This document shows positions 1,277 to 54,689 of a DNA stretch of 61,498 bases, piece after piece. Under the pieces are notes generated by a model. That model was not told the origin of the DNA and searched no databases. It worked only from the letters and a program-made list of their open reading frames with translations. This stretch comes from a virus (Duplodnaviria; Caudoviricetes): positions 1-61,498 of IMG/VR virus record IMGVR_UViG_3300042695_000123, one strand, 5' to 3'. Made by a program: the position numbers and the translations under genes. Position 1 is the first letter of the stretch. Every line of letters begins with the position of its first letter.

Positions 1277-1792
1277 ATGCTAACACTACTCTCAACCCTA
1301 ATCTCGTTTCTGATGGGCGGCCTGCCCAAAATTCTTGACTTCTTTCAAGACCGTTCAGATAAGAAGCACGAGCTAAACCTTGCCCAGATGCAGATACAGC
1401 GCGAGCTAGAACTACGCAAAGCTGGCTTTGAGGCACAAGAACGTATCGAGCATATCAAGTCAGAACAGCTTGAAACAGAGAGTGCGGCTAACACCAAGCA
1501 GATTCTGATCGGCGCTCAACAGGCTGAGATGCAGGCCATCTACGCCCACGATATGAGTTTAAACGAGGGAACCAGCGAATGGATGAAGAACCTTCGCGCC
1601 TCTGTTCGCCCAGTCATCACATACGGCTTCTTCTTCCTGTTAGTGTTTGTGGATGTAGGCTTGTTTGCCTATGGCTGGAGCCGTGGTGTGCCGTTCTCTG
1701 AGTTAGCCGAGATGCTGTGGGATCCCGAAACCCAAGCCCTGTTTGCCAGCATCATTGCTTTCCACTTTGGTGGCCGGGCGTTTGGCAAATGA
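1277..1792 (+). CDS. Putative holin
   Basis: Hydrophobic N-terminus, ASVRPVITY then TM segments, FHFGGR end; directly upstream of the lysozyme. Confidence 0.65.
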   Translation: MLTLLSTLISFLMGGLPKILDFFQDRSDKKHELNLAQMQIQRELELRKAGFEAQERIEHIKSEQLETESAANTKQILIGAQQAEMQAIYAHDMSLNEGTSEWMKNLRASVRPVITYGFFFLLVFVDVGLFAYGWSRGVPFSELAEMLWDPETQALFASIIAFHFGGRAFGK

Positions 1793-2265
1793 AAATATCA
1801 GCCAAGTGTTTAAACATGATTCGCCATCACGAGGGCGTGAGGCAGAATCCGTATAAATGCCCAGCAAAGTTGTGGACTGTGGGAGTTGGGCACGTAATGT
1901 TTCCAGAGCAGGGCAAGCTTAAGATAGACCAACGGGATGCGTTTATACCACCGCCAGAGGCCATGCGTAAACACTCAATGGAGGAAGTCGATGCAATACT
2001 TAGGGCAGACCTTGCTCGGTTTGAGAAAGGCGTGGCTACTTATTGTCCTGTGCCTCTTACTCAAGGACAGTTTGACGCATTGGTATCTTTTGCTTTCAAT
2101 GTAGGACTGGGCACTCTCCAGCGTTCTACCCTGCGCCAAAAGGTACTGCGTGGTGATATGGCCGGTGCAGCAGAAGAGTTGTTGAAATATTGCATGGCGG
2201 GGGGTAAAATTCTCAAAGGGCTACAGAATCGCCGTATTGACGAGCGGGCCGTGTTTTTATCCTAG
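1789..2265 (+). CDS. Endolysin, GH24 phage lysozyme
   Basis: HHEGVRQNPYKCPAKLWTVGVGH, QGQFDALVSFAFNVG, GLQNRRIDE; ATG 1789 overlaps the holin stop. Confidence 0.92.
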   Translation: MKISAKCLNMIRHHEGVRQNPYKCPAKLWTVGVGHVMFPEQGKLKIDQRDAFIPPPEAMRKHSMEEVDAILRADLARFEKGVATYCPVPLTQGQFDALVSFAFNVGLGTLQRSTLRQKVLRGDMAGAAEELLKYCMAGGKILKGLQNRRIDERAVFLS

Positions 2266-2273
2266 GACTGCCC

Positions 2274-4729: not shown

Positions 4730-7700
4730 TGGCACGTCGTAGCATGAATTACATGATGGATTACGAAGACACCGGTATTGATGGTGATACCTTTCGTGAT
4801 TATTCTGAACGTGATTTTGGTATTGCTTCATTGCCACAAGCCAAACCAGACATATTTGCGGCTGAAGCAGCTAGATTGGCTGAACTGGAAAATGCATTTT
4901 TTCAACAACAAGCTGAGGCTCAACGGCAAGCCGAATTAGAGCAGCAAGCAAGACAGGCAGAGGCTGCTAGGCAAGCGGCGTTAGCGCAGGAAAGGGCCGC
5001 CGCTGATGCTGCTCGTCAAGCTGCCGCCGCTCAAGCGGCTGCCGATAAAGCCGCTGCCGAAGCCGCCGCACGTGATGAAGCCGCAAGAACTGTTGCCCAA
5101 CAAGCTGCCGCTCGACGTGCTGCCGAAGCAGCCGCTCAGGCGCAAGCTGCTGCTGATCGGGCTGCTGCTGAAGCCGCTGCTCGACAAGAAGCCGCTAGGG
5201 TTGCAGCGCAACAAGAAGCGCAACGCCAAGCCGCAATAGCTGCTGAAGAAGCAAGGCGAAAAGCCGCTGAAGACGCATTTTTAGAACAACAGGCCAGAGC
5301 GCAGGCGGAACAGCAAGCGGAAGCACGCAGACAGGCTCAAATAGAAGCCGAACAACGAGCTTACGAAGATCAACAAAGAACTTACAGAGACGCTCAAGCT
5401 CGCCAAGAAGCACTTCGCGCTCAGAATGCCGCTAGATTAGCCGCAGAACAAGAAGCTGCAAGACAGGCGCAGTTAGCACAACAAGCTGAAGCACAAAGAC
5501 AGGCTGAAATAGCCGCTGAGGCCCAAAGACGCAAAGCCGCAGAAGATGCGTTTTTGGAGCAACAAGCCAGAGCGCAGGCCGAGCAACAGGCAGAACAACA
5601 GCGTCAAGCCCAAGCAGAAGCACAGCGTCAAGCTGAAGCTGCCGCCCGTCAGGCCGCTGCCGCACAAGAAGCCGCAACCAAAGCTGCCGCCGAAGCAGCA
5701 GCACGTGCCGAAGCTGCAAGAACAGCAGAACAACAAGCGGCTGCAAAGAGGGCTGCTGAAGCTGCTGCCGCTGCACAAGCTGCTGCTGATAAAGCTGCGG
5801 CTGAAGCCAAAGCTCAGGCTGATGCTGCGGCGCAAGCTGAAGCACAGGCCAAAGCCGATGCGGCAGCTAAGGCTGAAGCAGATGCCAGAGCCGCTGAGGC
5901 CACCAGAGTAACGCAACCTACAAACCGCTCAGATTTACAAATTGAAAGACAATTTACAGATGCTGATATTGAGGCTGGCATTGGTTCTTTGCCAGCAGCT
6001 AAAGCAGTTGCTCCTGCCAATAGCCAACAAACCGTTATTGACAAATTAACGCAGCAAATTCTTGGTCAAGGCACAACAAGTAAATGGTCTGGTCAAGGCT
6101 TTGGTTCTGCCGAAAAGAACGCAGCCGACATGGCTAAGATTTTGGCTGACACGGGCATTACAGACATTAAACAGTTTGGTAAATTTACAAAGACTGGTAT
6201 TAATGAAACTGTTACTTCAGATGGCAGGGGTGGTTTTGTAGATCAACGTGGCAACCCTGTAGATCCAAAATTAGTTACCTCTCAACTTGCAGGCGAAAGT
6301 GAAGGCGGCTATTACACCGAATACATGGCTCCCATTGGAAGCCAAGAGGTTTTTGGAAATAAAGAAACTAAAAAAGAAGTTGCCAATACTTACAGCGAAC
6401 GCCAGACTGGTAATTTCTTTGGCGGAACTTTTGAGGGCAAAGGCAACACGGGTTACGCTGTTCAGTTTGATGCTCAAGGTAATCCAATCTTCTACACGCA
6501 AGGTGCGTCTAGTAGCGATATCGGTCAGCTTGCACCTTTATTGGCGATTGCGTCTTTCATTCCTACGCTGGCTCCATTTGCTCAAGCTTTAAACGGAGCC
6601 ATTGCTCTTAAGAATGGCGACATTTTAGGCGGCATAGCTGCACTGGCTGGTGTGTCTGGTATGTCTGAGGTTTCCACAGGCTTGAAGGTTGTTAAGGCTG
6701 TTGAATCTGGCGATGTCATGGGTGTCGTTGGCGCTTTGATGTCCGATCCTAGCTTGGGTAAGTTGGCATCGACCACCATGATTGGTAATGGCGTGTCGTT
6801 TGCCGATGCTGGCAATACCTTAAAGATTGTTGACAATTTAAACAAGGGTAATTTGGTTGGTGCATTAAGTTCTGCTGGCGACATGTCAGGCAGTTCTGAT
6901 GTCAGAACAGCAGCGGCTGGTTTAAACCTTGTTAACGCCATCCAAAGTGGCGATATAACTAAGATTGCCAATGCGGCTGGTAGTTTAAACAACACACTCA
7001 ACGCAACCAATAATGTTGTGACCCAATTGCAGAAGGCAGGCTTGGCGGATACGAGCGCCAACACCGACACCAACATCCAAACTCTATTGGATAACATGTT
7101 GACTTTGGATGCCTCTGGAGCAAGTGATGTAGACGCAGCAGCCGACTTGGCTCAACAGCAAGGCTATAACAAATTCACTTTTGGCGGCAAGACATACAAC
7201 TTAGATTTAGACAACTCCGCAGCGACTATTGCTGATTTGGAAAACATTGTTAGGCAAGAAACTGAAGCCAAGAAGGCGGCAACAACAGCCGCCAATTTAG
7301 CTGGCGGTGAGTTTGCTGGTGTAGATGCTGCGATAGCTGCTCAAGCCAAGGCCAACAACGTAGTGATTGGCAATGCTGAAGCAGACACACCACAAGAAGC
7401 TGCTTACCTTGCCAAGCAACGTAACCCGAACGGAACATCATTTACCTTTGGCGGCCAGACTTACGAAATGGGCATTAATGATGCGACTGTAAACGCAGCA
7501 CTGGCAGAGACAAGAAAAACTGCTGCGTTGAATGATATTCAAAATGCACCAAACTTTAATACAGCTTATGCTGCCGCTCGTGAAGTTCTTGGCCCTAACC
7601 AGACGTTTACATGGAATGGCAAACAGTACAGCACTGCTACCGCCGCAGAGCGCCCAGATTTGTCTGGCCCCTCGATTGATCAGTTAAACAAAATCAATCT

Positions 7701-10278
7701 GGCTACAGTGACAGATGCGTCTAAAACTGTTGCCGCACAAAGCGATACCGCCGCACGAGCTACTGCCGCAGAAGAGCTTGCCAAACAACAAGCCGCTCAA
7801 AAATCCGCAATAGCGAATATGGAAAAGACTGGGTTTTGGAGTGGCTTGGGTTCTAAAATTCAAGAGACGATGAAGTTAAGTAGTGCGGAGGCTAATAAGT
7901 TTTTAAAAGAAAACCCTGACAGCCCGATCACAAAAAACGTAAGCACAGCATACGAAGCCGCTGGCAACTTAGAGAAGAACGTTGCAGGTGGCCTAGCTTT
8001 GTTGACGAACAACAAGCCATTGGCTGACGCTTTTGTAAAGAGTGGAGATGACCTGACTAAGCTTGGTCAAAGTTTGGGCAATGGTGTTGTAGACACCAAG
8101 AATTGGAACGACACCATGTCGTTGCTTCAAAATGCACAAGGATGGGAAAAGCTTGGTGTTATTGCTGGTCGAATCGCAGATGGCACAAGTGGTTTGGGTC
8201 GCCAGATAGAGATAGAACTAAGGCAAGAGTTGCCCGCTCTGTTCCTTGGCGGCGGTAGCGTCAAAGGTCTTATGGTTGCCAGCGGTGCAATGAATACCGC
8301 AGAGACTGGTGGTAATGCCGCATTAGATGCTTATGATGATGCCGTCAAGAAAGGCAAAACCCATAACGAAGCTTTGTCTGATGCTAGGGTAGCAGGCGCT
8401 GTTGCTGGTGCTACGGAAGCTGCCATTCAATTAACACTGGGCAAACTAGCCGACTTTGGTGTTGGCAAAATTAGTAACATAGGCACTAAAGCTGGCACTA
8501 AAATAGCTGGCGAGGGTATTGTTGAGGCGGGTCAAGAAGGCGGCGCTGCGGCGGCTGTAGATCTGGCGCTTGGCAATGCGATGGATCCAAACAAATATCT
8601 TACCCAAGCTATTGCAGGCGGGGTGGTTGGCAAAGGAACTGCCACCGTAACCTCGCCCACTGATATTGTTACATCAACTAATCAAGGCAAAGTTTTAGCT
8701 GTTGACCCAAATAGTGGTACTGCATTAATTCAAAATGCTTCTGGTGTAAATCAAGTAGTAAATGTAGGTGGTGATGTTAATGTAGGGTCAACAGTTACTC
8801 TTGCATCTACCCCTAAGACTGATACCACACAAACCTTAATAGATGCAGGTTTACAAAATACAGCCAGTCAACCTGCAATAGGAGAGATCACTTCAATTGT
8901 GAGTGGCACGGGCGCATCCACAGGCGCAACTACAGGAGCGTCCACGGGCGCAACTACGGGTGCAACCACCGGAGCTACAACTGGTTCGACTGTAGATGTT
9001 GCCACGGCTCAACAAATGATGGCAGATCTAGGATTAAATGTTTCTAATCAAACCGCTGTGTCTTTGGCATCACAAATTTCTAAAGCCAATACTGGAACAA
9101 CCGGGGCAAATGTTGTTACTGGGCCTACAACTGGCGCAAGCACTGGAGTGGCTGGGGCAAACACAGGCCTTGTCATTGCCACAGACACATCCGCAGGCAC
9201 TGCATTGGTCATAAATGACTCCGGCAAGACTCAGGTCGTAAGCTTATCAAGCCCCGCTTCTCCCGGCTCGCAAGTGACGCTTACCACCGATACATCTACA
9301 GGATCGATCACAGCGGCTCCAGCCACAACTGCCACCGCAGGCACTGACACCGCAACAAATGCTGCAACAGCCGCTACCACTGCGGCCAATACGGCTACAA
9401 CAGCGGCCAATAACACTGCGGCGAACGTCAGTACCAACAACAATACTGATGCGGTCGTTAATGCAGCTACCGCAACTGATGCGGCGGCACAGGCCAATAC
9501 TGCCGCTAATGTGGCAAACAATGTAGCGGCTACTACAAACTCACCCACCGCCACAGATGCAGCCGTGGCTGCAAATACAGCGGCTGACGTGGCAACGAAT
9601 GCGGCTGTAAATGCCAATACCAACGTTAACCCCAACGTTACTCCGGATACCACTGTTACTCCTAACGTGACCCCCGATGTTACTGTTACTCCTAGCGTGG
9701 GAGTAGATACCAACGTTAATCCGACGGTTACGCCAAACGTTAACCCAAATGTTAACCCTAACGTTAACCCTAACGTTAACCCGAATGTCAATCCAAATGT
9801 TAACGTTTCTACGCCTGACGTTATTAATGTGGGTGGCGTAGACATTCCCGGTGTTTACACGCCTCCTAGTGTGTTGCCGCCAACCACGCCAGCAACACCT
9901 GCAACTCCTGCTACCCCCGCAACGCCCGTCAAAAAGACACCGGCTAAAGCGGCAGATACGTCATCGACACCTTACCAATACCAACAACAAGTCAACCAAA
10001 ACATCATCCCTGAACTGGCCAATGTGTTCTATTACGGCAAGAACTTTGGGGGACAGCAACAGAAGCTGACACCCGAAGGTGAATTGATGATGTCTCCGTA
10101 CCATGAGTTGAGTGTGACGAAAGCTGGCGCAGAGCCAGCACCACAAGCTATTCCTGTTGCACAAGAGGAAAAAGGAGAGGAAAATGACGTATCCGCGTTA
10201 TTGCAACAAATTATGTCTTCTGGCAACAACAATATGACGGAAGAAGAGTTAATGCAAATTATTCAAGCAAGAGGTTAA
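4729..10278 (+). CDS. About 1850-aa low-complexity virion/ejection protein
   Basis: TAATG coupling at 4727-4731; Ala/Gln/Glu coiled coil, three FT(F/W)xGxxY motifs, GATT, NPNV and PAT repeats. Confidence 0.75.
9735..9805 (+). repeat. 12-nt coding tandem repeat (NPNV)n
   Basis: AACGTTAACCCN-like units. Confidence 0.8.
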
Positions 10279-11293: not shown

Positions 11294-11302
11294 GGTTTAA
11301 AC

Positions 11303-12196
11303 ATGGCTACTTTACCCGCAGCAATGACCCCCACAAGCGGTGGCTCATCCTCTTCTACCCTATCCGACTGGGCAGGCCCGTATGTAACCAATATGCTTGG
11401 CAAAGCCCAAGCTATTGCCAATGAGCCTTATCAGGTCTACCAAGGCCCAATGACTGCGGGTGAATCTGGCCTGCAATCTAAGGTGTTTCAGGGCTTGGGC
11501 AATCTGTCCTTCCCCGGCAACTTAGGTCAATCCTTTAGTTCTGCCGGTGCATATGCGCCTCCAACCATGGCTCCCGGTGCGTTTACACCTAGTTCTATAG
11601 GTGCAAATGCTCCAGCCGTAGGAGCGCCTCCTGCTGGTTCTCCTCCTGCTCCAACTGGTATTGCAGCCCAGTACATGAATCCATATTTGCAGTCTGTGCT
11701 TGATCCGCAGATGGCAGAGTTGCGCCGTCAGAATGACATTACCAACATGCAAACCAACGCCAAACTTACAGGCGCAGGCGCTTTCGGTGGTGGCCGTCAG
11801 GCAATCATGAACGCAGAGAACAACCGTAATCTCATGCAAGAGATGAACAAGACTGTGGGTCAAGGCTACGCAAATGCTTATGACAAGGCCATGGCTCAGT
11901 TCAACACCGAGCAAGGCCAAGCCAAGACTCTGGCTGACATGATGTCTGAGCAAGGCGGCCAACAGCGTAACATCGAACAGCAAGGCATCAGCGCAGATTA
12001 CAACGAGTTCCTTGCCCAGCGTGATGATCCAATGAAAAAGACGCAATACTTGCAATCTATGTTGCAAGGTCTGCCTATCTCTACGGTCACCAACACAGCC
12101 GCCCAACAAAGCGGTATTGGTCAGTTAGCTTCTACAGTGGGCGGCTTGGGTTCTATCTTTGATTCGCTCAAGAAATTTAATTTGACTGGCGGTTAA
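11303..12196 (+). CDS. Putative DNA ejection/pilot protein
   Basis: YMNPY and GAFGGGRQ motifs, Gln/Gly-rich. Confidence 0.65.
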   Translation: MATLPAAMTPTSGGSSSSTLSDWAGPYVTNMLGKAQAIANEPYQVYQGPMTAGESGLQSKVFQGLGNLSFPGNLGQSFSSAGAYAPPTMAPGAFTPSSIGANAPAVGAPPAGSPPAPTGIAAQYMNPYLQSVLDPQMAELRRQNDITNMQTNAKLTGAGAFGGGRQAIMNAENNRNLMQEMNKTVGQGYANAYDKAMAQFNTEQGQAKTLADMMSEQGGQQRNIEQQGISADYNEFLAQRDDPMKKTQYLQSMLQGLPISTVTNTAAQQSGIGQLASTVGGLGSIFDSLKKFNLTGG

Positions 12197-12198: not shown

Positions 12199-13776
12199 AT
12201 GAATCTGATCCAAGTACAAGAGCACCTCAAAGATTTACCCATGCGGGTAATCATGGAATATGCCAACGGGAAGAGTACTCAGGTTCCTCCCTATTTGGCG
12301 TTGGGAGAACTTAACCGCCGCAAGCAAATGGAGCAATCTGCGAAGACTGCCCAGCCTCCTCAAGGTACAGTCAAAGACAGGATTGAACAAGAGGTGACGG
12401 GCGGCCAGCCTCCCAATCCCATGCAGTCAGCAATGCAAGGCCAGCCTGCTCCCATGGCTATGCCGCAACAACAACCGCAGATGCCTGAAGGTGCTGAACC
12501 CATGCCTCAGATGGCGGGTGGTGGTTTAACTGCGCTGCCAGTGGGTGATATGTTTAAATTCGCTGCCGGTGGTGGCGTTGTGGCTTTTGCCGATGAAGGC
12601 TTGGTACGTGATCCCATGTCTGGCATGGTAATTAGTTCTGACGAACCATCCACCGATGACCGCACCCTCATGGAGCGACTGGGCATCTTTAATCCAGAGA
12701 ACCGCCGCGCCCTTGAGCGCGGTGCGCGTGCAGCCGCTGCCGCCAAAAATCCTCCTAAAGAAGAGCCTAAGAAAGAAGAAAAGAAAGCAGAACAGGGCGG
12801 CGCATATGACCCCGCTACAGCAACTCGTCGAGTTGACTTTATGCAACCACCTCCCGCTCCAGCCGCAGGCATCCCTGCTGCGATTGGTATGCCTAAAGCT
12901 CCCACTTTTGAAAAGCCTGATGTAAATGCATATAGCACGCAACTGGCTGCTTTTAAGAAAGCTAACCCCGGTGCGGTTGGTAGCGAGTTCCAAGGCTTGT
13001 TGGACAAGCTTGCCCAGCAAGATGAAGAAGATCGTGCCAAGTTTCTGACTCAAGAAAAAGGCCGTACACGTGCTGATTTCTGGCAGGCTTTGATTGATGC
13101 GGGTGAGTCTACCCGTGGTCAAAAAGGTCTGGGAGCTTTGTTTGGCGGCTTTGGCCGTTCTGCTATTGCGTCCCAAGCCAAGGCAGATGAGCGTGCAAAC
13201 GCACAGGCCAAGATGCGTCGTGACCAAGAACTCAACATGGCTAAGATGCGTGCTGAACTTGAAGCTGCTCGCCGTGCCGAAGCTCGTGGTGACTTTGAAG
13301 CTGCGTTTAAACATAAGCAAGACGCAGATAAGATTGCTCGTGACATAGAGCAGACCCAGTTCTCCAATAGGGTTGATCTGGCTAAGTTGGCTGAACAGGC
13401 TCGTGGCAACACCATCCAAGCTTCTACTGCCGCTCGTGCCCCTGCGCTCATTCAAATGGCTCAAGAGATTCAGCGCCAAAATGAGGGCATGACTTTCAAT
13501 GAAGCATTGGAGCGAGCAAGCGTGGCACAGCAAGGTGCTCAGTATCAGAACGCAGATGCTCGTCGTCAGCAGGCCATAGATAAGGCGTACCAAGAGGAAC
13601 GTCCATTTGATCCAAAAATGATCGAGTTTATGACTAAAGATCCTGCGGAGAAAAGGCGCATGTTGAAAGAAAATGAAGACGCTTACAACCGGATTCGTGC
13701 TAGATTCGGGGTAGGGCCAGCGGGTCAAACTGCACCCGCTCAAAACATCCCCGGTAAAGTTGAACGAGTTGGATAA
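12199..13776 (+). CDS. Putative ejection protein
   Basis: Helical, Pro/Gln-rich, MAGGG and FAAGG motifs; position in the internal protein block. Confidence 0.65.
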   Translation: MNLIQVQEHLKDLPMRVIMEYANGKSTQVPPYLALGELNRRKQMEQSAKTAQPPQGTVKDRIEQEVTGGQPPNPMQSAMQGQPAPMAMPQQQPQMPEGAEPMPQMAGGGLTALPVGDMFKFAAGGGVVAFADEGLVRDPMSGMVISSDEPSTDDRTLMERLGIFNPENRRALERGARAAAAAKNPPKEEPKKEEKKAEQGGAYDPATATRRVDFMQPPPAPAAGIPAAIGMPKAPTFEKPDVNAYSTQLAAFKKANPGAVGSEFQGLLDKLAQQDEEDRAKFLTQEKGRTRADFWQALIDAGESTRGQKGLGALFGGFGRSAIASQAKADERANAQAKMRRDQELNMAKMRAELEAARRAEARGDFEAAFKHKQDADKIARDIEQTQFSNRVDLAKLAEQARGNTIQASTAARAPALIQMAQEIQRQNEGMTFNEALERASVAQQGAQYQNADARRQQAIDKAYQEERPFDPKMIEFMTKDPAEKRRMLKENEDAYNRIRARFGVGPAGQTAPAQNIPGKVERVG

Positions 13777-40057: not shown

Positions 40058-40268
40058 GCTTGTGATGTGTGTGTATGTGTGCGCCCCACCGCCCCCGTAC
40101 CCCCCATGCAGGCCGTTGACCACCCGCCCGTCTATTACGCTCTATTCCACTCTTCCCAACATTTCTCCACAAACACCCCCCCCCATCCAATCCAAATCGC
40201 CAACCCCCCCCCTATATATATTTTCGTTTAAACAGTTGCGAACGTTCTCATTATCGTTTAAACTGTGT

Positions 40269-41148: not shown

Positions 41149-41150
41149 AC

Positions 41151-42888: not shown

Positions 42889-45270
42889 ATGAGTATCGAC
42901 AAAGCAATCAGCCAAGCCCCTATGGGTCTTTCCGAACTTCTTGAGGACATTGGCGTGGACGTTGAATTAGACGATCCCGTCATCATTGAAGAGGAAAGCG
43001 TTGAGATTATCCTATCGCCTGACTCAGACTACGACAGTGATTTTGATGACAACCTCGCAGAAATCCTAGATGAAGGCACATTAGGCAAGATTGCTTCTGA
43101 ACTGGTGGAGCTTGTAGAGGCTGACATCATGTCCCGCAAAGACTGGGCTGAAAGCTTTGTCAAAGGCTTGGAAGTTTTGGGAGTTAACTACGAAGAACGT
43201 ACAGAACCATGGAACGGAGCCTGCGGGGTTTACTCCACAGTCTTGACTGAAGCTGCAATTAGGTTCCAGTCTGAGTCCATCATGGAGACATTCCCTGCCG
43301 CTGGCCCTGTCAAGACAGAGATCATCGGAGCGATTGACCGCCTGAAGGAAGAAGCAGCCGACCGAGTTCAGGCTGACATGAACTTTAAGCTGACCGAGGA
43401 AATGCCTGAGTACCGCCCAGAGCATGAGCGCATGTTGTACTCCTTAGGTCTGGCTGGCGCGGCATTTAAGAAGGTCTACTACGACCCAGCCCTTGAGCGT
43501 CAGGTCGCAGTCTTTATCCCTGCCGAAGACATGATTGTTCCGTATGGAGCTTCTAATCTTCAGAACGCAGAACGTGTTACTCATGTGATGCGTAAGACCA
43601 AGAATGAAATGCGCCGCCTACAAGTCAGCGGTTTCTACAGAGACATTGACCTTGGCGAGCCTGTTCAGTACCTATCTGATATTGAAAAGAAAAAAGCTGA
43701 CCAGCAAGGCTACAAAGCGACTGATGACGATAGATTCCAACTCTTGGAAGTCCATGTTTACTGGGACTTAGAAGGGTTTGAAGATGAAGACTCTGAGGGA
43801 GAGCAAACAGGTATTGGCCTGCCTTATGTCATCACAATTGATCGCGGCACTAATAAGGTTCTGGCTATCCGACGTAACTGGATAGAGAACGACGGCAAGA
43901 AAGCCAAACGTCAGCATTTCGTAGATTACTGCTATATCCCCGGCTTTGGTTTCTACGGCATGGGTTTGATCCACATCATCGGTGGCTACGCCCGTGCAGG
44001 CACATCTTTGATCCGTCAGTTGGTAGACGCAGGTACTCTGGCCAACCTCCCCGGAGGTTTGAAAGCCCGTGGCGCTCGCATCAAGGGTGACGATACACCC
44101 ATCCAACCGGGTGAGTTCAGGGACGTAGATGTCCCAAGTGGTGTCATCAAAGATAACATCATGACGCTGCCTTACAAAGAGCCAAGCGGCACTTTGTTAA
44201 CTTTGTTAGATCGCATCACAGAAGAAGGCCGCCGTCTAGGTTCTATCTCTGACATGAAGATCTCTGACATGAGCGCTAACGCGCCAGTCGGTACAACTCT
44301 GGCCTTGTTAGAAAGAACCTTGAAGACCATGGGCGCAGTACAAGCCCGTGTCCATTACTCGATGAAGCAGGAGTTTAAACTCCTCAAGAGCATCATCAGA
44401 GACTACTCGCCTGCCGAGTATGAGTACGATCCACAAGGCAACGACCGCCAAGTTAAGCAGTCTGACTACGACCTAGTTGAAGTCATTCCTGTATCTGATC
44501 CCAACAGTTCCACAATGGCCCAAAGGATCATGCAGTATCAGGCTGTGATCCAGTTGGCTCAGGGTGCTCCGCAGATCTATGATCTGCCATTGCTGCACCG
44601 CCAGATGATTGAGGTTCTGGGTATCAAGAACGCAGACAAACTGATCCCCGGCGCAGAAGATCAGACACCTAAAGATCCGATCAGTGAGAACATGGCATTC
44701 CTCAACGGAAAGCCAACCAAAGCATTCATTTATCAGGATCATGAGGCGCACATTGCAGCGCACACATCCTTCATGCAGGATCCAATGATTGCCGCTCAGA
44801 TTGGTCAAAACCCAATGGCACAGAAGATTCAAGCGTCAGCGATGGCTCACATAGCAGAACACTTGGCGTTCTTGTACCGCAAGAAAGTCGAAGAGCAGGT
44901 CGGAGTTCCTCTCCCCGCTCCAGATGCCAAACTACCAGAAGACGTGGAAGTTCAATTGTCCCGTCTGGTTGCCCAAGGCTCCGCCCAGTTACTCCAGCTT
45001 AACCAAGCTCAACAGCAACAACAGCAAGCCCAGCAGCAAGCACAAGATCCGCTCATCCAGATGCAACAAGCTGAACTCCAGCTTAAGGGTCAGGCCGAGC
45101 AGACCAAGGCGCAGAAAATTGCCGCCGATATTGAAATGGCAAAAGCCAAACTCGAACTTGAGAACAAGCGGATCGACACGCAGGCTCAACTCGACATGGC
45201 TCGTATCCAAGCGCAGGAAAAACAACACAACCAAAAGGTTCAAGTTGACCTGTTTAAACGAGGAGCATAA
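42889..45270 (+). CDS. Portal protein
   Basis: 793 aa after TerL, FKKVYYD, Gln-rich C-terminal coil. Confidence 0.85.
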   Translation: MSIDKAISQAPMGLSELLEDIGVDVELDDPVIIEEESVEIILSPDSDYDSDFDDNLAEILDEGTLGKIASELVELVEADIMSRKDWAESFVKGLEVLGVNYEERTEPWNGACGVYSTVLTEAAIRFQSESIMETFPAAGPVKTEIIGAIDRLKEEAADRVQADMNFKLTEEMPEYRPEHERMLYSLGLAGAAFKKVYYDPALERQVAVFIPAEDMIVPYGASNLQNAERVTHVMRKTKNEMRRLQVSGFYRDIDLGEPVQYLSDIEKKKADQQGYKATDDDRFQLLEVHVYWDLEGFEDEDSEGEQTGIGLPYVITIDRGTNKVLAIRRNWIENDGKKAKRQHFVDYCYIPGFGFYGMGLIHIIGGYARAGTSLIRQLVDAGTLANLPGGLKARGARIKGDDTPIQPGEFRDVDVPSGVIKDNIMTLPYKEPSGTLLTLLDRITEEGRRLGSISDMKISDMSANAPVGTTLALLERTLKTMGAVQARVHYSMKQEFKLLKSIIRDYSPAEYEYDPQGNDRQVKQSDYDLVEVIPVSDPNSSTMAQRIMQYQAVIQLAQGAPQIYDLPLLHRQMIEVLGIKNADKLIPGAEDQTPKDPISENMAFLNGKPTKAFIYQDHEAHIAAHTSFMQDPMIAAQIGQNPMAQKIQASAMAHIAEHLAFLYRKKVEEQVGVPLPAPDAKLPEDVEVQLSRLVAQGSAQLLQLNQAQQQQQQAQQQAQDPLIQMQQAELQLKGQAEQTKAQKIAADIEMAKAKLELENKRIDTQAQLDMARIQAQEKQHNQKVQVDLFKRGA

Positions 45271-45882: not shown

Positions 45883-46857
45883 ATGGCAGAATTAGACAAG
45901 ACAGAATATGAGTTTCCCGATGAAATCGAGGAAAAGCAGTCTCGTTTAGGTAGTAAGGTTGTAGAACCTGAGCCTGAAGAGAAGGTCGTAGACGAACCTG
46001 AGATAGAGATCGTTGACGACACACCGGATGAAGACCGTGGCCGAAAGCCCATGGAAACCCCTCCACAAGAGCCAACCGACGAGGAACTGGCTGCATATTC
46101 CCAGCGTGACCGCAACAAACTTCGTGAATTTACGAAGGGCTATCACGACGAACGCAGAGCTAAAGAAGCTGCGATCAGGGAAAAAGAAGAGGCTATTCGC
46201 ATTGCTCAAGCAGTTTATGAAGAGAATCAAAAACTCAAAAGCAATGTGCACAGCAGTCAAAGTGCCCTGCTAGAGCAGGCTAAAAAAGTTGTTTCGCAAG
46301 AGGTTGAAGAAGCCAAGCGCCGCTACAAATCAGCATATGAGTCAGGAGACGCAGATGCCCTTGTACAGGCTCAAGAGGACTTAACCACTGCCAAGATGAA
46401 GGCAGAGCGTGTAAACAATTTTAAGCCTACCCCTTTACAGGAAGAAAAAACTGTTGTACAACCCGCATATCAGCAAGCACCTCGCGTTGATACTAAAGCT
46501 GTTGAATGGCAACAAGCCAATAAATGGTTTGGTACTGACAAGGAAATGACCGGATTCGCTCTGGCGGTGCATGAAAAGCTGGTTAACGACGAGGGTTTAG
46601 ATCCTCAGAGTGACGAATACTACAGACGCATCAACGGTAGAGTGCGTCAAGTGTTTCCAGATAAGTTTGAATCTGCGGAACCCGCTGATACGACGCAGCG
46701 TAGGAAATCAAACGTTGTTGCTTCTGCGACACGCAGCGTGGCTCCTAAAAAGATCACGTTGTCTGCATCAGAAGTGGCTATTGCCAAGCGGCTAGGCCTT
46801 CCTCTGGAACGCTATGCTCGTGAGGTTGCGATATTAAGAAGGAAAGAAAATGGCTGA
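45883..46857 (+). CDS. Capsid scaffolding protein (putative)
   Basis: Acidic N-terminus, coiled coil, between portal and capsid genes. Confidence 0.7.
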   Translation: MAELDKTEYEFPDEIEEKQSRLGSKVVEPEPEEKVVDEPEIEIVDDTPDEDRGRKPMETPPQEPTDEELAAYSQRDRNKLREFTKGYHDERRAKEAAIREKEEAIRIAQAVYEENQKLKSNVHSSQSALLEQAKKVVSQEVEEAKRRYKSAYESGDADALVQAQEDLTTAKMKAERVNNFKPTPLQEEKTVVQPAYQQAPRVDTKAVEWQQANKWFGTDKEMTGFALAVHEKLVNDEGLDPQSDEYYRRINGRVRQVFPDKFESAEPADTTQRRKSNVVASATRSVAPKKITLSASEVAIAKRLGLPLERYAREVAILRRKENG

Positions 46858-48881: not shown

Positions 48882-48910
48882 TTGCATTGGTTTAAACAGA
48901 GTGGTATAAA
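48882..48910 (+). promoter_or_regulatory. Sigma70-like promoter with GTTTAAAC in its spacer
   Basis: TTGCAT, 17 bp, TATAAA with TG extension. Confidence 0.55.
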
Positions 48911-49000: not shown

Positions 49001-49540
49001 ATGGCACGTACTACGTTTCAAGGCCCAGTTCGTTCATTGGGCGGCATTTATCAACAAGGCCCAGCGTCTATTGTTGACATCACAACAAGCACCACATTAA
49101 GCCCAGAAGCTCACGGCGGTCGTATCATCGCAGTTGGCGGTTCTTTGGCCGCAGCAGTCACTTTGACTTTGCCAGCAATCAACGTTTCAACAAACTCTGT
49201 TACATCTGGCCCCGGTCAAGACCCAAGCACAGCTAACAACGAAGGCGTTGTTTACACAATCTGGGTTCCCACTACCATCTCTACAAGCTCTTTGAAGATT
49301 GGTACTAACGGCACTGACAAATTTGTTGGTTCTTTGATTTCTGTTGATACAGATACATCTGGCGCAGTTGTTGGTTTTACAGCCGGAGCATCTAACGATT
49401 TCATTAACTTGAACGGCACAACAACTGGTGGCGTGGCAGGAACATGTATTCAAATCGTTGCAATTGCAGCTAACAAATACATGGTTCAAGGCCAATTGCT
49501 TGGTTCTGGCATTGTCGCCACACCTTTCGCAGATTCCTAA
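49001..49540 (+). CDS. Virion structural protein (capsid fibre/decoration-like)
   Basis: MARTTFQGPVRS, TLTLPA, ATPFADS. Confidence 0.7.
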   Translation: MARTTFQGPVRSLGGIYQQGPASIVDITTSTTLSPEAHGGRIIAVGGSLAAAVTLTLPAINVSTNSVTSGPGQDPSTANNEGVVYTIWVPTTISTSSLKIGTNGTDKFVGSLISVDTDTSGAVVGFTAGASNDFINLNGTTTGGVAGTCIQIVAIAANKYMVQGQLLGSGIVATPFADS

Positions 49541-50337: not shown

Positions 50338-50573
50338 ATCTCAATACCGCTTGGTCTGCCATCCTATCTTTAGTGATTGGATTGTTAGGTTACATGATGA
50401 ACGAAAAGTTCAGGGAACTGGCACGTGTCACGATCCTGTTGAACAAAACTCGTGAGGAGGTAGCACGTGATAACGTTACTCAAGCAGAAGTTGACCGCAT
50501 TACAAGTCATATTGACCAACGCTTTAACAAGCTTGAAGAAAAAATTGACCAGCTTATTCGGCAAGGACGATAA
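50325..50573 (+). CDS. Small membrane/coiled-coil protein
   Basis: N-terminal TM, LLNKTREEVA, FNKLEEKIDQL. Confidence 0.7.
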   Translation: MELLDLNTAWSAILSLVIGLLGYMMNEKFRELARVTILLNKTREEVARDNVTQAEVDRITSHIDQRFNKLEEKIDQLIRQGR

Positions 50574-51037
50574 TGCCAAGTAAAAGTAAAGCTCAACATA
50601 ATTTCATGGCCGCGATAGCTAATTCGCCATCGTTCGCTAAGAAAGCCGGAGTGCCCATGTCAGTGGGTAAAGACTTTGTAACTGCCGATAAAGGCAAGAA
50701 ATTTTCTAAAGGTGGCGATATGAAAAAAATGAACATGGGCGGATACGCATCAGGCGGTTTAAACATGGTCAACAAAGGCGGCAAAATGGTTCCTGACTTT
50801 GCTGCTGATGGTGTTGGCAAGATGGCTAAAGGCGGTATGGCTCACAAAGACGTAAAGATGGACAAGAAGATGATGCAAAAGGCCGTGAACAAACACGAAG
50901 GCCGTTTGCATAAAGGTCAGCCCATGACCAAGTTGGCTGCTGGTGGCGCATTCCGCAAATCAGCTAATGGCATTGCTTCAAAAGGCAAAACCAAGGGCAC
51001 AATGATTACCATGAACAAAGGCGGCATGGCCTGCTAA
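50573..51037 (+). CDS. Basic protein with multiple xxxGG motifs and C-terminal tag
   Basis: Seven GG motifs; SANGIASKGKTKG. Confidence 0.75.
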   Translation: MPSKSKAQHNFMAAIANSPSFAKKAGVPMSVGKDFVTADKGKKFSKGGDMKKMNMGGYASGGLNMVNKGGKMVPDFAADGVGKMAKGGMAHKDVKMDKKMMQKAVNKHEGRLHKGQPMTKLAAGGAFRKSANGIASKGKTKGTMITMNKGGMAC

Positions 51038-51046: not shown

Positions 51047-52018
51047 ATGGCTACGAGAAAACCAATGAAGAAGTTTAAACGCTACGATGAGGGTGGCGAT
51101 GTTTCTGAATCTAGAGCCAAACAACGTGGCCTAGAACTTTCTAACAAAGAAGAGCCTGTTGGCTTCTTTGAGCGTATCCGCATGGGTAACATTGATCAGC
51201 CCGGATCAGAAGCATACAACCGCTTTGGCGCTGGCCGTGGTTATGCCAAGACCATGGAAGAAGAGAGTGAAGCCGCTCGCGCACCTATGCGTGCGCCCGC
51301 CGCTGCTCCTGCACCTTCTGCACGCCCTATGTCTGATGACATGTATTCGGACTATGGTTCAAGCTCTGGTTCTGGTGCTGCCGGTACAAGCGAAACAATC
51401 AAGCCTACTCGTCAGGTGATGACTAAGCCTACATTGCCTGCGTCTAAGCCTACTGCCCCTGCCGCAGCCGCAGTTCCCAGTTTGCGTAACACTGGCCCTA
51501 TGCGTGGTGACTTGGCAAACAAGCCTGCCACAACCGCTAACTACAGCAATGAAGGCCGTAGCAGACCTGCTCCAGTCGCTCCTGCGAAGCCTTCCATGGA
51601 TGTGCCCGGCATGAGAGAAAGCGCTAAAACCGCTTTGGCCGATGATCCCACTGCATTGATTGGCGGCGCTGGAGCCGCTGCTGCCGCTTTATTGGCACGT
51701 AGCAAGCTGGGCAAAATGTTTAGAGGCGCAAAGAAAGCTGCCGATAAATCTCCGTACCTCAAAGAAATTGGTATGGAACCCAAAAAGCTGACTGGCTCTA
51801 AACGTACGGATAGTGAAAGTAAAAAAGCCGATAAAGCATATGACAAACTGAAAAACAGCAAATTCACTAAAAAAAGTGATGATGATGTTACCGATGTTAC
51901 GGCTAAAAAACGCGGCGGCATGGTTAAGAAGTATGCCTCAGGCGGAATGGTTTCATCTGCGTCTAAACGTGCTGACGGTATTGCCACTAAAGGCAAGACT
52001 CGTTGCAAGATTTGCTAA
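51047..52018 (+). CDS. Low-complexity protein with GG/RADG C-terminal tag
   Basis: YASGGMVSSASKRADGIATKGKTRCKIC. Confidence 0.75.
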   Translation: MATRKPMKKFKRYDEGGDVSESRAKQRGLELSNKEEPVGFFERIRMGNIDQPGSEAYNRFGAGRGYAKTMEEESEAARAPMRAPAAAPAPSARPMSDDMYSDYGSSSGSGAAGTSETIKPTRQVMTKPTLPASKPTAPAAAAVPSLRNTGPMRGDLANKPATTANYSNEGRSRPAPVAPAKPSMDVPGMRESAKTALADDPTALIGGAGAAAAALLARSKLGKMFRGAKKAADKSPYLKEIGMEPKKLTGSKRTDSESKKADKAYDKLKNSKFTKKSDDDVTDVTAKKRGGMVKKYASGGMVSSASKRADGIATKGKTRCKIC

Positions 52019-52027: not shown

Positions 52028-52474
52028 ATGAAACGCAGTGTAAACGACTACGATAAAACCTCAGGTGGCGGTTATCAAATTCCACGCACTCAGACCAAAA
52101 GTCGAGATCAAGAAGCGTTGGATTACTTAGGGGGCGGTTTAGGGCTTGCAGGTGCTGCTGCAACCGCAGCAATGGCTATGAGTCCTAAAAGGACAAATGA
52201 AGATCGTCGTGAAGCTGCTGAAGCTGCCAAACGTGAATCTGATGCTGCAATGAAGCGTGAAATGCGAGGCGTTCAAAAGCCTGCTAACTTTGATGCAATC
52301 GAAGAAGCCAAGCGTGATGCTAAAGATGCACGTGACCGCAAGAAGATTAGCGACATGGGTTACAAAAGCGGTGGCAAAGTTTCTTCCGCATCTAGCCGTG
52401 CTGATGGTTGCGCCACAAAAGGTAAAACTAAAGGCACTATGATTACCATGAAAGGCGGCGGCTACGCCTGTTAA
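52028..52474 (+). CDS. Protein with GG/RADG C-terminal tag
   Basis: YKSGGKVSSASSRADGCATKGKTKG. Confidence 0.75.
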   Translation: MKRSVNDYDKTSGGGYQIPRTQTKSRDQEALDYLGGGLGLAGAAATAAMAMSPKRTNEDRREAAEAAKRESDAAMKREMRGVQKPANFDAIEEAKRDAKDARDRKKISDMGYKSGGKVSSASSRADGCATKGKTKGTMITMKGGGYAC

Positions 52475-53365: not shown

Positions 53366-54295
53366 ATGACAACTACCGGCTCAACCCTCTTTAATCTTGA
53401 CTTCACGGAAATTGCCGAGGAAGCATGGGAGCGTGCGGGTCGTGAGATGCGTTCAGGCTATGACTTGCGTACAGCACGCAGATCAATGAACCTGATGACC
53501 ATTGAGTGGCAAAACCGTGGCATCAATATGTGGACGATGGAGCAAGGGTTTATTAACCTGACTCCGGGTCTGGCAACCTATGCGTTGCCGACAGACACAA
53601 TTGATTTGCTGGAACAGTTGATTCGCACTGGCGCAAATACAGCTTCAACTCAGGCTGATCTGACCATCACCCGTATTAGTGTTTCTACCTATGCCACTAT
53701 TCCAAACAAACTCCAACAAGCAAGACCAATCCAAGTCTGGGTTCAGAGGTTGTCTGGCGAAGTTAATCCAACAGCTTCGGTGCTTGACGGAGCCATCACT
53801 TCCACGGACACCACGCTCACGCTTAACACGGTGGTTGGACTAGCCGGTTCAGGCTTTCTCCGTTTGGGTACAGAAGATATTTACTACACCTACATATCAG
53901 GGAATACCCTTGGTGGTGTATTCCGTGGCCAGAACAACAGTACAGCCGCTGCACATGCAGATGGTACTGCGGTGTTTGTTCCTCAACTTCCTGCGGTTAC
54001 TGTGTGGCCTACGCCAGACAATTCAACGCCATACCAGTTTGTTTACTGGAGACTGCGCCGAGTCCAAGATGCTGGCGCTGGTATGGAGACAGCAGACATG
54101 AACTTCCGCTTCCTGCCTTGTTTGGTTGCAGGCCTAGCCTACTACATTGCCATGAAAGTGCCTGAGTTGCAGGGACGTTTGGACATGCTCAAGGCCGCAT
54201 ACAACGAGCAATTTGATCTTGCCGCTGGTGAAGACAGGGAAAAAGCTGCTGTTAGATTTGTGCCCCGTCAGATGTTTATTGGTGGGAGTATGTAA
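53366..54295 (+). CDS. Head-tail adaptor / tail tubular protein A-like
   Basis: ARRSMNLM..EWQNRG, VWPTPD, RFLPCLVAGLAYY. Confidence 0.7.
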   Translation: MTTTGSTLFNLDFTEIAEEAWERAGREMRSGYDLRTARRSMNLMTIEWQNRGINMWTMEQGFINLTPGLATYALPTDTIDLLEQLIRTGANTASTQADLTITRISVSTYATIPNKLQQARPIQVWVQRLSGEVNPTASVLDGAITSTDTTLTLNTVVGLAGSGFLRLGTEDIYYTYISGNTLGGVFRGQNNSTAAAHADGTAVFVPQLPAVTVWPTPDNSTPYQFVYWRLRRVQDAGAGMETADMNFRFLPCLVAGLAYYIAMKVPELQGRLDMLKAAYNEQFDLAAGEDREKAAVRFVPRQMFIGGSM

Positions 54296-54678
54296 TGGGT
54301 AACCGATTTGCATCCGGCAAGATAGCGATTGCTGAATGTGATCGGTGCGGCCAGCAATACAAACTCAAGCAGCTTAAGACTGAGATCATTAAGCAGCGTC
54401 AATTTCAGTTGTTGGTGTGCCCAGAATGCTGGGATCCAGATCAACCGCAGTTAATGCTAGGAACATTCCCAGTGGATGATCCGCAAGCCCTACGCAATCC
54501 GCGTAAAGATACAACGTATGTCACCTCTGGTGTAAACGTTAACGGTAATTTGTCTGGTGGTTCACGAGACATTCAGTGGGGCTGGCAGCCTGTTGGTGGA
54601 GCCAGTTTAAATGATGCAGGATTGACACCAAACTACTTGGTGGCAACGACATTTGTTGGTACAGTAACGATATCTTAA
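54295..54678 (+). CDS. Zinc-ribbon protein
   Basis: CDRC...CPEC, DPQALRNPR. Confidence 0.7.
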   Translation: MGNRFASGKIAIAECDRCGQQYKLKQLKTEIIKQRQFQLLVCPECWDPDQPQLMLGTFPVDDPQALRNPRKDTTYVTSGVNVNGNLSGGSRDIQWGWQPVGGASLNDAGLTPNYLVATTFVGTVTIS

Positions 54679-54689
54679 GGAGTTTAAAC

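Follow-up and report, generated by a model that had tools for sequence, protein, structure and literature searches.

Cluster A mycobacteriophages carry stoperators, i.e., asymmetric 13-14-mers that are mainly intergenic, are oriented with transcription, belong to one cluster and are bound by an L5 gp71-type repressor, a helix-turn-helix (HTH) immunity repressor. Short dispersed words also address proteins to a replicon in the ParB-parS, MatP-matS, Noc/SlmA and KOPS-FtsK systems. The cyanobacterial word HIP1 (GCGATCGC) is a hyper-abundant octamer palindrome, present in genic and intergenic DNA and under selection, according to the available part of its published description (PMC5861425). We describe here an array of a further short word, the 8-bp palindrome GTTTAAAC, in IMG/VR virus record IMGVR_UViG_3300042695_000123, the complete virus record of a tailed freshwater phage. 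The window, as we use the term, is the whole stretch of DNA that was analysed, i.e., all 61,498 bp of this record.

On the protein side, ArdC of plasmid R388 combines a DNA-binding domain with a Spartan-like metalloprotease and counters type I restriction in the recipient, and its protease mutant E229A still works, as stated in the accessible part of that paper (PMC7213743). The accessible part of a preprint on Cluster AZ actinophages describes a SprT-like protein, homologous to the one discussed below, with a DNA-binding domain predicted at its C-terminus, and with no site array, and says that it also resembles Spartan.

The interpretation that we favour, with a probability of about 0.58, is that the 49 copies of GTTTAAAC in the window, together with 22 copies of the variant GTGTAAAC, are dispersed docking sites, and that their reader would be the C-terminal zinc ribbon, with its KxQxTR arm, of a SprT-like protein that the phage itself encodes. 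In sequence comparisons made in both directions, the presence of the array was shown to go with that of this domain, in phages that are unrelated and have different hosts.

Results

Abundance of the word and selection on it

A previous analysis based on the letters alone (the sequence-only reading) had counted at least 48 copies of GTTTAAAC, where about one was expected. We found 49 exact copies, which included all 48 starts listed previously, the copy at 13305 having been missed. The expectation was also borne out: in 100 dinucleotide-preserving shuffles the mean count was 1.01 and the largest 4, none of the 100 reaching 49, while a Markov-3 model gave 2.85. GTTTAAAC is the most frequent 8-mer of the window, and the runner-up palindromic 8-mer has 5 copies.

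By our gene calls, which are heuristic and give the window a coding share of ~94%, 13 copies are read as xLN, 20 as xFK, and 16 are intergenic or lie at gene boundaries, although three of these 16 (32466, 32523 and 32574) lie in an extra open reading frame (ORF), 32453-32851, in the xLN frame. The sequence-only reading had argued from the differing frames that protein sequence did not explain the copies, and had named a codon-aware null model as a check. In 1000 within-gene synonymous-codon shuffles the count was 3.94 ± 1.75 (largest 10), compared with 33 in-gene copies observed, so that the excess remains. Where the protein sequence allows GTTTAAAC, it is used at 20 of 22 x-F-K-[LPHQR] places and at 13 of 23 x-L-N places.

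The earlier statement that the copies are concentrated at control points held only in part: 16 of the 49 fall in the ~6% of the DNA that is non-coding, but at least two thirds of the copies are within genes. Four copies (11295, 36800, 41143 and 54682) directly precede an ATG, as had been noted, and four (23994, 38250, 40226 and 41143) overlap a stop codon as GTT-TAA. A copy said to lie in a promoter spacer could not be retained, because sigma-70-like matches overlapped none of the 49. The remark that there are no copies after 54690 was correct: the DNA is free of GTTTAAAC from 54690 through the end to 1556, i.e., for 8.4 kb over the tail-fibre module, a gap that is marginally unusual (P ~0.04, permutation).

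Conservation in relatives

Close relatives were plentiful in IMG/VR, where 552 of 566 candidate stretches were confirmed; the related metagenome loci analysed were the best 80 of these 552. GTTTAAAC was present in 80/80, at 0.13-1.53 copies per kb. Five larger relatives had 46, 18, 25, 19 and 12 copies, compared with 0, 0, 1, 0 and 0 copies of the reversed control word. Of the 32 copies aligned with a complete relative (G001; 79% identity over 36.8 kb), 24 were exact there, compared with 23% for all 8-mers, and in a second relative (G002; 70% identity) 3 of 5 aligned copies were kept, compared with 7% for all 8-mers. There is turnover of the array too, since six aligned copies were private to G001. 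Together, the codon shuffles and these alignments show that selection on the DNA has maintained GTTTAAAC as a word, despite codon usage and sequence divergence. In 50 kb from each of four distant relatives, recognised by their terminase, there were 3, 0, 0 and 1 copies, which is no more than expected.

The possibility of an assembly artefact was considered and ruled out, because GTTTAAAC is dense in 80/80 related loci, in 5/5 larger related contigs and in the genomes of isolate phages.

A single tolerated variant

Near matches had been described as common. One of them, GTGTAAAC (GTTTACAC on the opposite strand), occurred 22 times compared with 2.8 expected and was the sole strongly enriched one-letter variant; variants at positions 2 and 4 were depleted in the window (0-2 copies, compared with 2.7-3.6 expected). 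The base preceding GTTTAAAC was Y in 34/49 copies (position -1) and the base following it was R in 41/49 (position +8), giving, with the variant included, the site consensus Y-GT[T/G]TAAAC-R. This spectrum looks like that of a defined binding specificity in which a change is tolerated at position 3 only. The doubly changed palindrome, GTGTACAC, had 0-1 copies in the actinophages in which GTGTAAAC dominates.

In the window, GTGTAAAC showed no strand preference (8 copies vs 14), and strand-oriented sites of the stoperator type were therefore not what we found. In two other phages the strand bias of GTGTAAAC was strong and opposite, with 4 forward and 24 reverse copies in Cen1621 (ON970568) and 13 forward and 3 reverse in SuMoo (PQ184831).

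Co-occurrence of the array with a zinc-ribbon tail

The candidate reader, P0001, is a SprT-like zinc metalloprotease of 197 residues encoded at 38252-38845 (-). Its tail domain (residues 148-197; 38255-38404, -) comprises a K-x-Q-x-T-R arm and a zinc ribbon (CPSC...CPC), and is the part proposed to read GTTTAAAC. Searches with tblastn found homologues of P0001 in 164 of 50,697 phage records, the hosts including Arthrobacter, Microbacterium, Streptomyces, Bordetella, Pseudomonas, Escherichia, Dinoroseobacter and Burkholderia.

In the forward direction, we took the window and 14 homologue records picked to span genera, and ranked all 8-mers against their Markov-3 expectation. GTTTAAAC ranked first or second in the window (49 copies), Methylophilales phage Venkman (34 copies; 34% G+C), Burkholderia phage Mica (7 vs 0.12 expected), Dinoroseobacter phage R26L (20 vs 0.41) and E. 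coli phage HeidiAbel (6 vs 0.51), and there were 4 copies each in Persinger and Mano, compared with ~0.1 expected. GTGTAAAC ranked first in Zeta1847 (22 copies), Powerpuff (27), Bogota (39) and phage 4A (13). Neither word was present in MW2, Epa5, Dismas or Armstrong, exceptions that the alignment explains: in the proteins of these four genomes, which are not enriched, both the QxTR arm and the first cysteine knuckle are missing. With the three words pooled and a Poisson P < 1e-3 taken as the criterion, 9 of 11 tail-bearing genomes were enriched, compared with 0 of 8 without the tail (four with divergent tails and four with no homologue); the association had a Fisher P of 7e-4, uncorrected for relatedness. 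The two tail-bearing genomes that missed the criterion, Mano and HeidiAbel, had 4 and 6 copies of GTTTAAAC compared with 0.13 and 0.51 expected.

Dismas (NC_042099) and Armstrong (NC_048090), with their different tail, share another enriched 8-mer, CTCGGTGA, with 17 copies each compared with ~3 expected. It may serve as the word for their version of the tail, or have nothing to do with it.

In the reverse direction, at least 119 IMG/VR stretches were chosen by three clustered copies of GTTTAAAC alone. Stretches with 1 or more copies per kb in four or more kb-bins were called dense, the highest density being 4.7 per kb; the counts of dense stretches given here and below are those among the matches listed. 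There were 86 dense stretches, 66 of them without DNA similarity to the window. A hidden Markov model of the tail domain found an ORF in 51/86 dense stretches vs 4/33 others. Searches of whole contigs with the tail alignment were positive for 15 of 34 further dense contigs and for 3/3 complete ones, giving a total for the reverse test of 66/85 dense contigs with a tail. No tail ORF was found in 14 tandem-repeat control contigs (3 of them complete), and among 120 stretches from genome contigs there was only one, in L139, which is itself dense (6 copies in 1.5 kb). Of all window proteins, the SprT-like protein had the most homologues in the 66 dense loci unrelated to the window, with 26, compared with 23 for the large terminase and 8 for the primase-helicase. 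The candidate readers named in the sequence-only reading, i.e., a LexA-like protein (41151-41381) and the products of 25205-25513 and 22944-23132, had 0 homologues each in these loci and are not supported as readers.

The sites are also spaced more evenly than expected by chance in R26L, Powerpuff, Bogota, Mica, HeidiAbel and 4A, with a coefficient of variation (CV) of 0.36-0.58 compared with ~0.9 for random placement. The values were 0.36 for R26L (PP882867), 0.53 for Powerpuff (MN703413) and 0.52 for Bogota (OQ938579), with P <= 2e-4 by permutation. This even spacing suggests selection for coverage, although the rule is not universal, because the arrays of the window and of Venkman are clustered.

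The array does not follow the host

The phages enriched in GTTTAAAC or GTGTAAAC infect Actinomycetota and Alpha-, Beta- and Gammaproteobacteria, spanning 34-71% G+C. [quoted passage not shown] SuMoo encodes the tail, and the SprT-like proteins of Dismas and Armstrong lack it. A fragment of a related phage (L110), which matches the primase-helicase end of the window, was binned in a Burkholderiaceae metagenome-assembled genome (MAG); this MAG, which is not established as the true host, was not enriched (41 GTTTAAAC vs 45 of the reversed control word). The word does not therefore behave as a trait of a cellular lineage of the HIP1 type, and the host origin that had been suggested by analogy with HIP1 was not upheld.

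L110 and L139, the latter from a Microbacteriaceae MAG, are short, motif-dense, phage-like contigs and are probably mis-binned viral DNA. A motif-based search for the host was also tried, but the scan of genome contigs for three clustered copies returned 120 stretches, nearly all of them tandem or CRISPR-like arrays, and because it was swamped by these it was uninformative.

Properties of the candidate reader

P0001 contains an intact HExxH metal-binding/catalytic motif of the kind found in SprT-like/Spartan metalloproteases (HELCH, residues 85-89; 38579-38593, -). It belongs to phrog_6361 (function unknown; E 3e-33), its family comprises 2,901 clusters at 50% identity (E <= 1e-3), and depositors annotate its homologues in phage records as 'SprT-like protease'. 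The match to the Pfam SprT-like family (PF10263) had an E of 1.3e-4 and a score of 22.2 bits, under the cut-off of 25.6. The AlphaFold2 model of P0001 had a mean predicted local distance difference test (pLDDT) score of 96.4 and a predicted template-modelling score of 0.83, and its best Foldseek match in the PDB was human Spartan (6MDW; E 4.8e-3, probability 0.95, template-modelling (TM) score 0.29-0.31, root-mean-square deviation 12 A), followed by the minigluzincins abylysin and selecase. The tail modelled alone had a pLDDT of 85.7.

A prediction with two copies of P0001 scored 0.69, compared with 0.00 for the best of 3 controls; at least 95% of contacts agreed between runs, and the partner pLDDT was at least 85. 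The mark used for a dimer was reached by 20 of 30 proteins with structures solved as same-chain pairs and by 1 of 23 with structures solved as single chains, counts that are rough because our own alignment was used. The model supports a symmetric homodimer, with a predicted interface in the N-terminal domain (residues 8-14, 36-74 and 142-147). Because the interface lies there, two tails would be presented, as a palindrome would need.

Among the enriched genomes, G001 and G002, the tail consensus was K-x-Q-x-T-R-(M/L)-x-K ... C ... G-Y-x-x-R-x-(T/S)-x-K-W ... C-P. In an alignment of 64 sequences, Q153, T155, R156, C162, R170, W175, P186 and C188 were 90-100% conserved, whereas HExxH was not. 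In the G001 homologue (L081-L084, ~28785-29393) IAQLAC replaces HELCH while the tail is retained, and G001 has 46 copies of GTTTAAAC. The tail occurred without HExxH in 14 of the 150 closest family representatives, and 17 tail-bearing ORFs from dense contigs were mini-proteins of 53-111 codons from stop to stop, with little beyond the tail. On these comparisons the constant partner of the array is the tail rather than the protease.

One copy of GTTTAAAC precedes the start of the SprT-like gene by ~20-27 nt in Persinger (22326), Mano (23249), HeidiAbel (25365) and Mica (20 nt upstream), four phages of proteobacteria that are P2-like or Arya-like and have few sites; this arrangement hints at autoregulation. 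The window has no GTTTAAAC upstream of its own SprT-like gene, and has one on its stop codon.

Positions of the sites in the window

In what follows, the peptide read at each site is given in brackets, and a copy is called kept when it is exact in G001. The first two copies are at 1557-1564 in ORF 1277-1792 (+; S-L-N) and at 1808-1815 in the lysozyme gene 1717-2265 (+; C-L-N-M). The gene of a 1,854-aa protein has one at 6920-6927 (G-L-N), not kept in G001, and one at 6983-6990 (S-L-N), which is ATTTAAAC in G001. The intergenic copy at 11295-11302, abutting ATG 11303, is kept, as is that at 13305-13312 (A-F-K-H) in gene 12199-13776, the one absent from the earlier list. Within the polyvalent gene 13780-22263, the copies at 14583-14590 (T-F-K-R), 15716-15723 (G-L-N), 15995-16002 (R-L-N) and 20678-20685 (S-L-N-M) are kept and those at 16911-16918 (L-F-K-R), 18279-18286 (W-F-K-R) and 20138-20145 (R-L-N) are not; another is at 17381-17388 (G-L-N).

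Four minus-strand ORFs downstream have kept copies, at 22625-22632 (ORF 22524-22736; V-F-K-R), 23244-23251 (ORF 23119-23307; Q-F-K-H), 24690-24697 (ORF 24613-24876; E-F-K-H) and 25489-25496 (ORF 25205-25513; K-F-K-P), and the copy at 23994-24001 forms the end of ORF 23436-23999 (GTT-TAA). The copy at 26044-26051 is intergenic by the heuristic calls, that at 26673-26680 in the gene of a Sak-like annealing protein (-; G-L-N) is kept, and two, at 28679-28686 (T-F-K-H) and 28721-28728 (A-F-K-Q), lie in ORF 28587-28859 (-). The copy at 30754-30761 in ORF 30536-30787 (+; S-F-K-R) is kept. Three copies lie in ORF 32453-32851, at 32466-32473 (S-L-N; kept), 32523-32530 (R-L-N) and 32574-32581 (R-L-N), and are followed by two kept intergenic copies, at 32877-32884, directly after a G+C-rich hairpin, and at 32917-32924, 4 nt before ATG 32929.

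Further minus-strand copies are at 33636-33643 (ORF 33382-33684; M-F-K-H; kept), 34038-34045 (ORF 34017-34190; R-L-N), 34777-34784 (ORF 34595-34912; T-F-K-Q), 35621-35628 (VWA gene 35030-35716; R-L-N) and 37393-37400 (MoxR-type AAA gene 36815-38233; V-F-K-R; kept). Two intergenic copies are interspersed with these, at 34983-34990 and at 36800-36807, the second abutting the start codon of gene 35720-36799 (-), and the copy at 38250-38257 overlaps the stop codon of the SprT-like gene (GTT-TAA). The copies at 40039-40046 (small-terminase-like gene 39395-40057; S-F-K-Q), at 40226-40233 (stop of ORF 40067-40231; GTT-TAA) and at 40256-40263 (intergenic) are kept. ORF 40525-41148 has a copy at 41106-41113 (L-F-K-P) and a kept one at 41143-41150, which forms its stop (GTT-TAA) and abuts ATG 41151 of the LexA-like gene. 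The copy at 42466-42473 in the large-terminase gene (A-F-K-Q) is kept in G002 and not in G001, while those in the portal gene at 44373-44380 (E-F-K-L) and 45252-45259 (L-F-K-R) are kept in both. An intergenic copy at 48890-48897 is kept; the remaining ones are at 50757-50764 (ORF 50573-51037; G-L-N-M), at 51073-51080 (ORF 51047-52018; K-F-K-R), where a G001 copy is present but displaced by an alignment gap, and at 54682-54689, an intergenic copy abutting ATG 54690 that is not kept and is the last before the 8.4-kb motif-free tail module.

The variant GTGTAAAC is on the plus strand at 2305-2312, 15314-15321, 19721-19728, 24823-24830, 42651-42658, 46409-46416, 52038-52045 and 54530-54537; at the last of these places G002 has GTTTAAAC. 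On the minus strand (read as GTTTACAC on the plus strand) it is at 9853-9860, 11581-11588, 21672-21679, 22721-22728, 24568-24575, 25613-25620, 27255-27262, 29826-29833, 31022-31029, 31738-31745, 39913-39920, 42616-42623, 49250-49257 and 56109-56116.

Other features of the window phage

The window encodes a large terminase (41378-42880), a portal protein (42889-45270), the small-terminase-like protein (39395-40057), a primase-helicase (30784-32463), the Sak-like annealing protein, a PD-(D/E)XK exonuclease, RusA and the lysozyme (1717-2265, +), as well as a MoxR-type AAA ATPase and a VWA protein. The polyvalent virion protein (13780-22263; 2,827 aa) has ART-PolyVal (ADP-ribosyltransferase) and LPD38 domains, and its gene was counted as holding 9 copies of GTTTAAAC; the 1,854-aa protein beside it had zero family matches in profile scans. 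No tRNA genes, which were looked for as a clue to the host, were found in the window, no integrase was seen among the window proteins scanned, and a megablast search of the phage collection with 20 kb of the window gave no near-identical phage. The nearest named phages by terminase (46-57% identity) were 023Pt_psg01, Pelagibacter phages HTVC027P and HTVC023P, DSL-LC04 and Planktothrix phage Pag-Yong1.

The SprT-like gene is the first in a leftward row (35030-38845, -) that continues with the MoxR-type AAA ATPase (36815-38233), a 359-aa protein (35720-36799) and the VWA protein (35030-35716); an ATPase and VWA pair resembling that of the window is also annotated in Pag-Yong1. Between this block and the small-terminase-like gene is a cluster of DnaA boxes (39182-39330), with 5 perfect copies of TTATCCACA and 2 one-mismatch copies in ~150 bp. 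TTATCCACA is also repeated 5-6 times in several relatives (L029, L033, L040, L046, L053, L074 and L077). From its sequence, the cluster is likely to be a DnaA-dependent origin or a DnaA trap, and the ORF called over it at 39169-39351 may be a non-gene.

ORF 32453-32851 overlaps the end of the primase-helicase gene, and would encode 132 aa with a low-complexity N-terminus that holds three copies of GTTTAAAC. It is a probable real gene that had gone unannotated, and the DNA word appears to have shaped its protein, because all three copies are read as (S/R)-L-N. An origin or iteron reading of the cluster at 32466-32917 was dropped, because three of its copies lie in this ORF and the DnaA-box cluster elsewhere is a better origin candidate.

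The records OL906435, OQ594354 and PP438419 are named for Planktothrix, Synechococcus and Planktothricoides, and yet all are 65,014 bp and give the same terminase match; Pag-Yong1 has 68.5% G+C, which is unusual for such cyanobacterial hosts. The stated hosts of these three records may deserve a check.

Discussion

A model for the array, and points against it

If the tail is the reader, the system might work as follows. The SprT-like protein would be made from the leftward early gene block, and its tail would bind Y-GT[T/G]TAAAC-R at ~71 sites, i.e., about every 0.9 kb, coating the phage genome. Binding would probably be as a symmetric dimer on the palindrome, and the predicted dimer fits a palindromic site. 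The tail would be expected to prefer CGTTTAAACG and GTGTAAAC over GTGTACAC and over mutants at positions 2 and 4. Occupancy of the sites would label the phage's own DNA; where HExxH is intact, as in the window, it would also hold a DNA-dependent, Spartan/ArdC-like metalloprotease on that DNA, from where the protease could remove host proteins bound to it or tracking along it, e.g., restriction or other defence complexes and silencers. Since protease-dead and tail-only versions keep their arrays, occupancy must itself be useful, e.g., as a roadblock or a shield.

Several observations weigh against this interpretation. The whole case is correlation, and what the protease is suggested to cleave is purely inferential. 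The genomes compared are phylogenetically dependent, which inflates the statistics: by our reading there are roughly six positive and two negative SprT-bearing lineages. No tail ORF was found in 19 of the 85 dense contigs, these 19 all being fragments (<=61% complete). The tail fold matched only generic zinc ribbons (MCM, TFIIE), with a best Foldseek E of 0.29, and the tail belongs to no known family of sequence-specific readers. In the tail alignment of the compared phages, no residue was seen to change in step with the base (T or G) at position 3. The predicted dimer interface is in the protease domain, so that tail-only proteins would have to read the palindrome in some other way. Finally, the layouts differ, the window array being slightly clustered (CV 1.21) and that of Venkman strongly so (CV 2.18), and one mechanism would have to fit both these and the evenly spaced arrays.

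Alternative explanations

A different phage protein might read the sites and travel with the SprT-like or tail gene, the tail itself doing something else, e.g., binding DNA non-specifically, as Spartan does. Reading of the sites by the tail is, after all, a proposal, and the actinophage homologues adjoin other DNA-binding genes. We nevertheless regard this as unlikely, because no other window protein co-occurs with the array as well, and the mini-ORFs of dense contigs that encode little but the tail implicate the tail itself. The neighbouring genes also vary by lineage, with a single-stranded DNA-binding protein in Persinger, Mano and HeidiAbel, a sigma-like HTH protein in actinophages and the MoxR ATPase in the window. 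Moreover, Armstrong, whose SprT-like protein lacks the KxQxTR tail, has no motif, although a published abstract places it in cluster EB and the AZ preprint says that the layout of AZ phages, including the HTH gene, is also that of EB phages. It is improbable, to a greater degree, that GTTTAAAC is a target for DNA modification or restriction, its abundance reflecting a modification-based self-mark or a decoy. Although an 8-bp palindrome is the kind of site read by type II enzymes, and DNA methyltransferases are annotated in Venkman and Powerpuff, a Pfam scan of 50 window proteins (the giant virion proteins included, with ~30 small or structural ORFs unscanned) revealed neither a methyltransferase nor a restriction domain, so that no cognate enzyme of a type II restriction-modification system was seen among them. 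A type II palindromic target also fits poorly with the actinophages, where the non-palindromic GTGTAAAC dominates and GTGTACAC is nearly absent, and restriction sites are usually avoided rather than multiplied.

That the copies form a stoperator-like array of operators for a small repressor, be it the LexA-like winged-helix protein (41151-41381) or another, is a very slim prospect. The LexA-like protein matches LexA_DNA_bind (E 1e-9) and the phrog_362 transcriptional repressor, and one GTTTAAAC abuts the start codon of its gene, but it lacks homologues in the 66 unrelated motif-dense loci; the motif-rich Venkman, R26L and actinophages were found via the SprT-like gene and not via the LexA-like gene, and 33 to 36 of the 49 copies are inside genes, in two frames. 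Slimmer again is the chance that a physical property of the DNA has been selected with no dedicated protein, the flexible TTTAAA core aiding packaging or bending. The AT-rich, bendable core and the even spacing in several phages are in keeping with this, whereas such a property would need neither the exact G and C ends nor the depletion at positions 2 and 4, and would not track one protein domain. We give least credence to a bias of mutation or repair that the host imposes, or to a word that the host recognises (HIP1-like or uptake-sequence-like) and that the phages share passively. HIP1 is a precedent for an iterated octamer palindrome in the available part of its description (PMC5861425), and the window phage's own host was not among the genomes counted; however, the breadth of hosts and of G+C content, the differences among phages of one strain, the unenriched MAG with the related fragment and the low counts in the four distant relatives all argue against it. 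The central idea of the sequence-only reading, a genome-wide mark for a DNA-binding protein that selection on the word, rather than on the proteins, maintains, is the best-supported interpretation; the readers that it named and the host origin are not supported, and neither, among the 50 window proteins scanned, is the modifying enzyme.

Significance

We put forward only tentatively, as a possibility that we consider less probable than not being the case, a wider form of the docking-site interpretation. The ~45-residue tail module would be an unrecognised sequence-specific reader of Y-GT[T/G]TAAAC-R in a 'self-address' system through which host proteins that act on incoming DNA would be cleared or blocked. 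At least four bacterial classes would have phages that seed their own genomes with 4 to >70 copies, evenly spaced in some, and the address would hold either a DNA-activated Spartan-type protease or a bare reader on the phage DNA; reader and array would have moved together between phage lineages.

If the link between tail and array is causal, it would give a role to the large family phrog_6361 and, if the interpretation is true, would define a new and very small DNA-reading domain with 8-10-bp specificity. The array shows that phages can accept an evident burden on codon usage, and even on the sequences of proteins, in order to retain such an address in their genomes. A possible mode of counter-defence would be a protease or roadblock tethered to the invader genome, with ArdC as its nearest studied relative. 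The pair of array and tail is present in cultured phages of E. coli, Microbacterium and Arthrobacter. GTTTAAAC is also the PmeI/MssI site, and these enzymes would cut the DNA of such phages into many pieces.

Comparison with described systems

Like stoperators, the window array has dozens of dispersed copies of one short word across a phage genome, and the reader of stoperators is a phage-encoded DNA-binding protein, as the candidate reader would be. Unlike them, its word is an 8-10-bp palindrome that lies mostly in genes rather than an asymmetric, oriented, intergenic site, and it occurs across phages of hosts from different phyla. Nor was an HTH immunity repressor found as the reader: the LexA-like protein does not co-occur with the array, and the candidate is instead a zinc ribbon, carried as a tail that is usually on a protease. 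Similarly, the dispersed words of the ParB, MatP, Noc, SlmA and KOPS arrays resemble those described here, and the even spacing in some phages recalls coverage-type arrays, but those systems are cellular and have other reader folds. To our knowledge, none of them carries a protease.

Like Spartan/SPRTN-Wss1 (6MDW), P0001 appears to have an HExxH protease of the minigluzincin type followed by a putative zinc-binding, DNA-binding sub-domain. It differs in that the match is weak (TM ~0.3; Pfam below cut-off), and in that the catalytic motif has been lost repeatedly in the P0001 family. Spartan itself is not, as far as we know, a reader of any particular sequence.

With HIP1 the array shares an octamer palindrome that is many-fold over-represented in coding and non-coding DNA. 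HIP1, in the available part of its description (PMC5861425), is a trait of a host chromosome or lineage, whereas the word described here is a trait of phages, differs among the phages of one strain and has a candidate reader gene. By analogy, the nearest studied system is plasmid ArdC. The activity of ArdC E229A parallels the protease-dead and tail-only forms in the P0001 family, although, on the accessible part of the ArdC paper (PMC7213743), the domain order of P0001 is reversed relative to ArdC, with its N-terminal single-stranded DNA-binding domain, and P0001 has no ArdC-type Pfam match. We found no paper describing an array of GTTTAAAC or of GTGTAAAC/GTTTACAC in phages, although a mention in supplementary files is possible. 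The array is probably a variant of the dispersed protein-site arrays of phages, in which the proposed reader module and effector differ from those of any described system.

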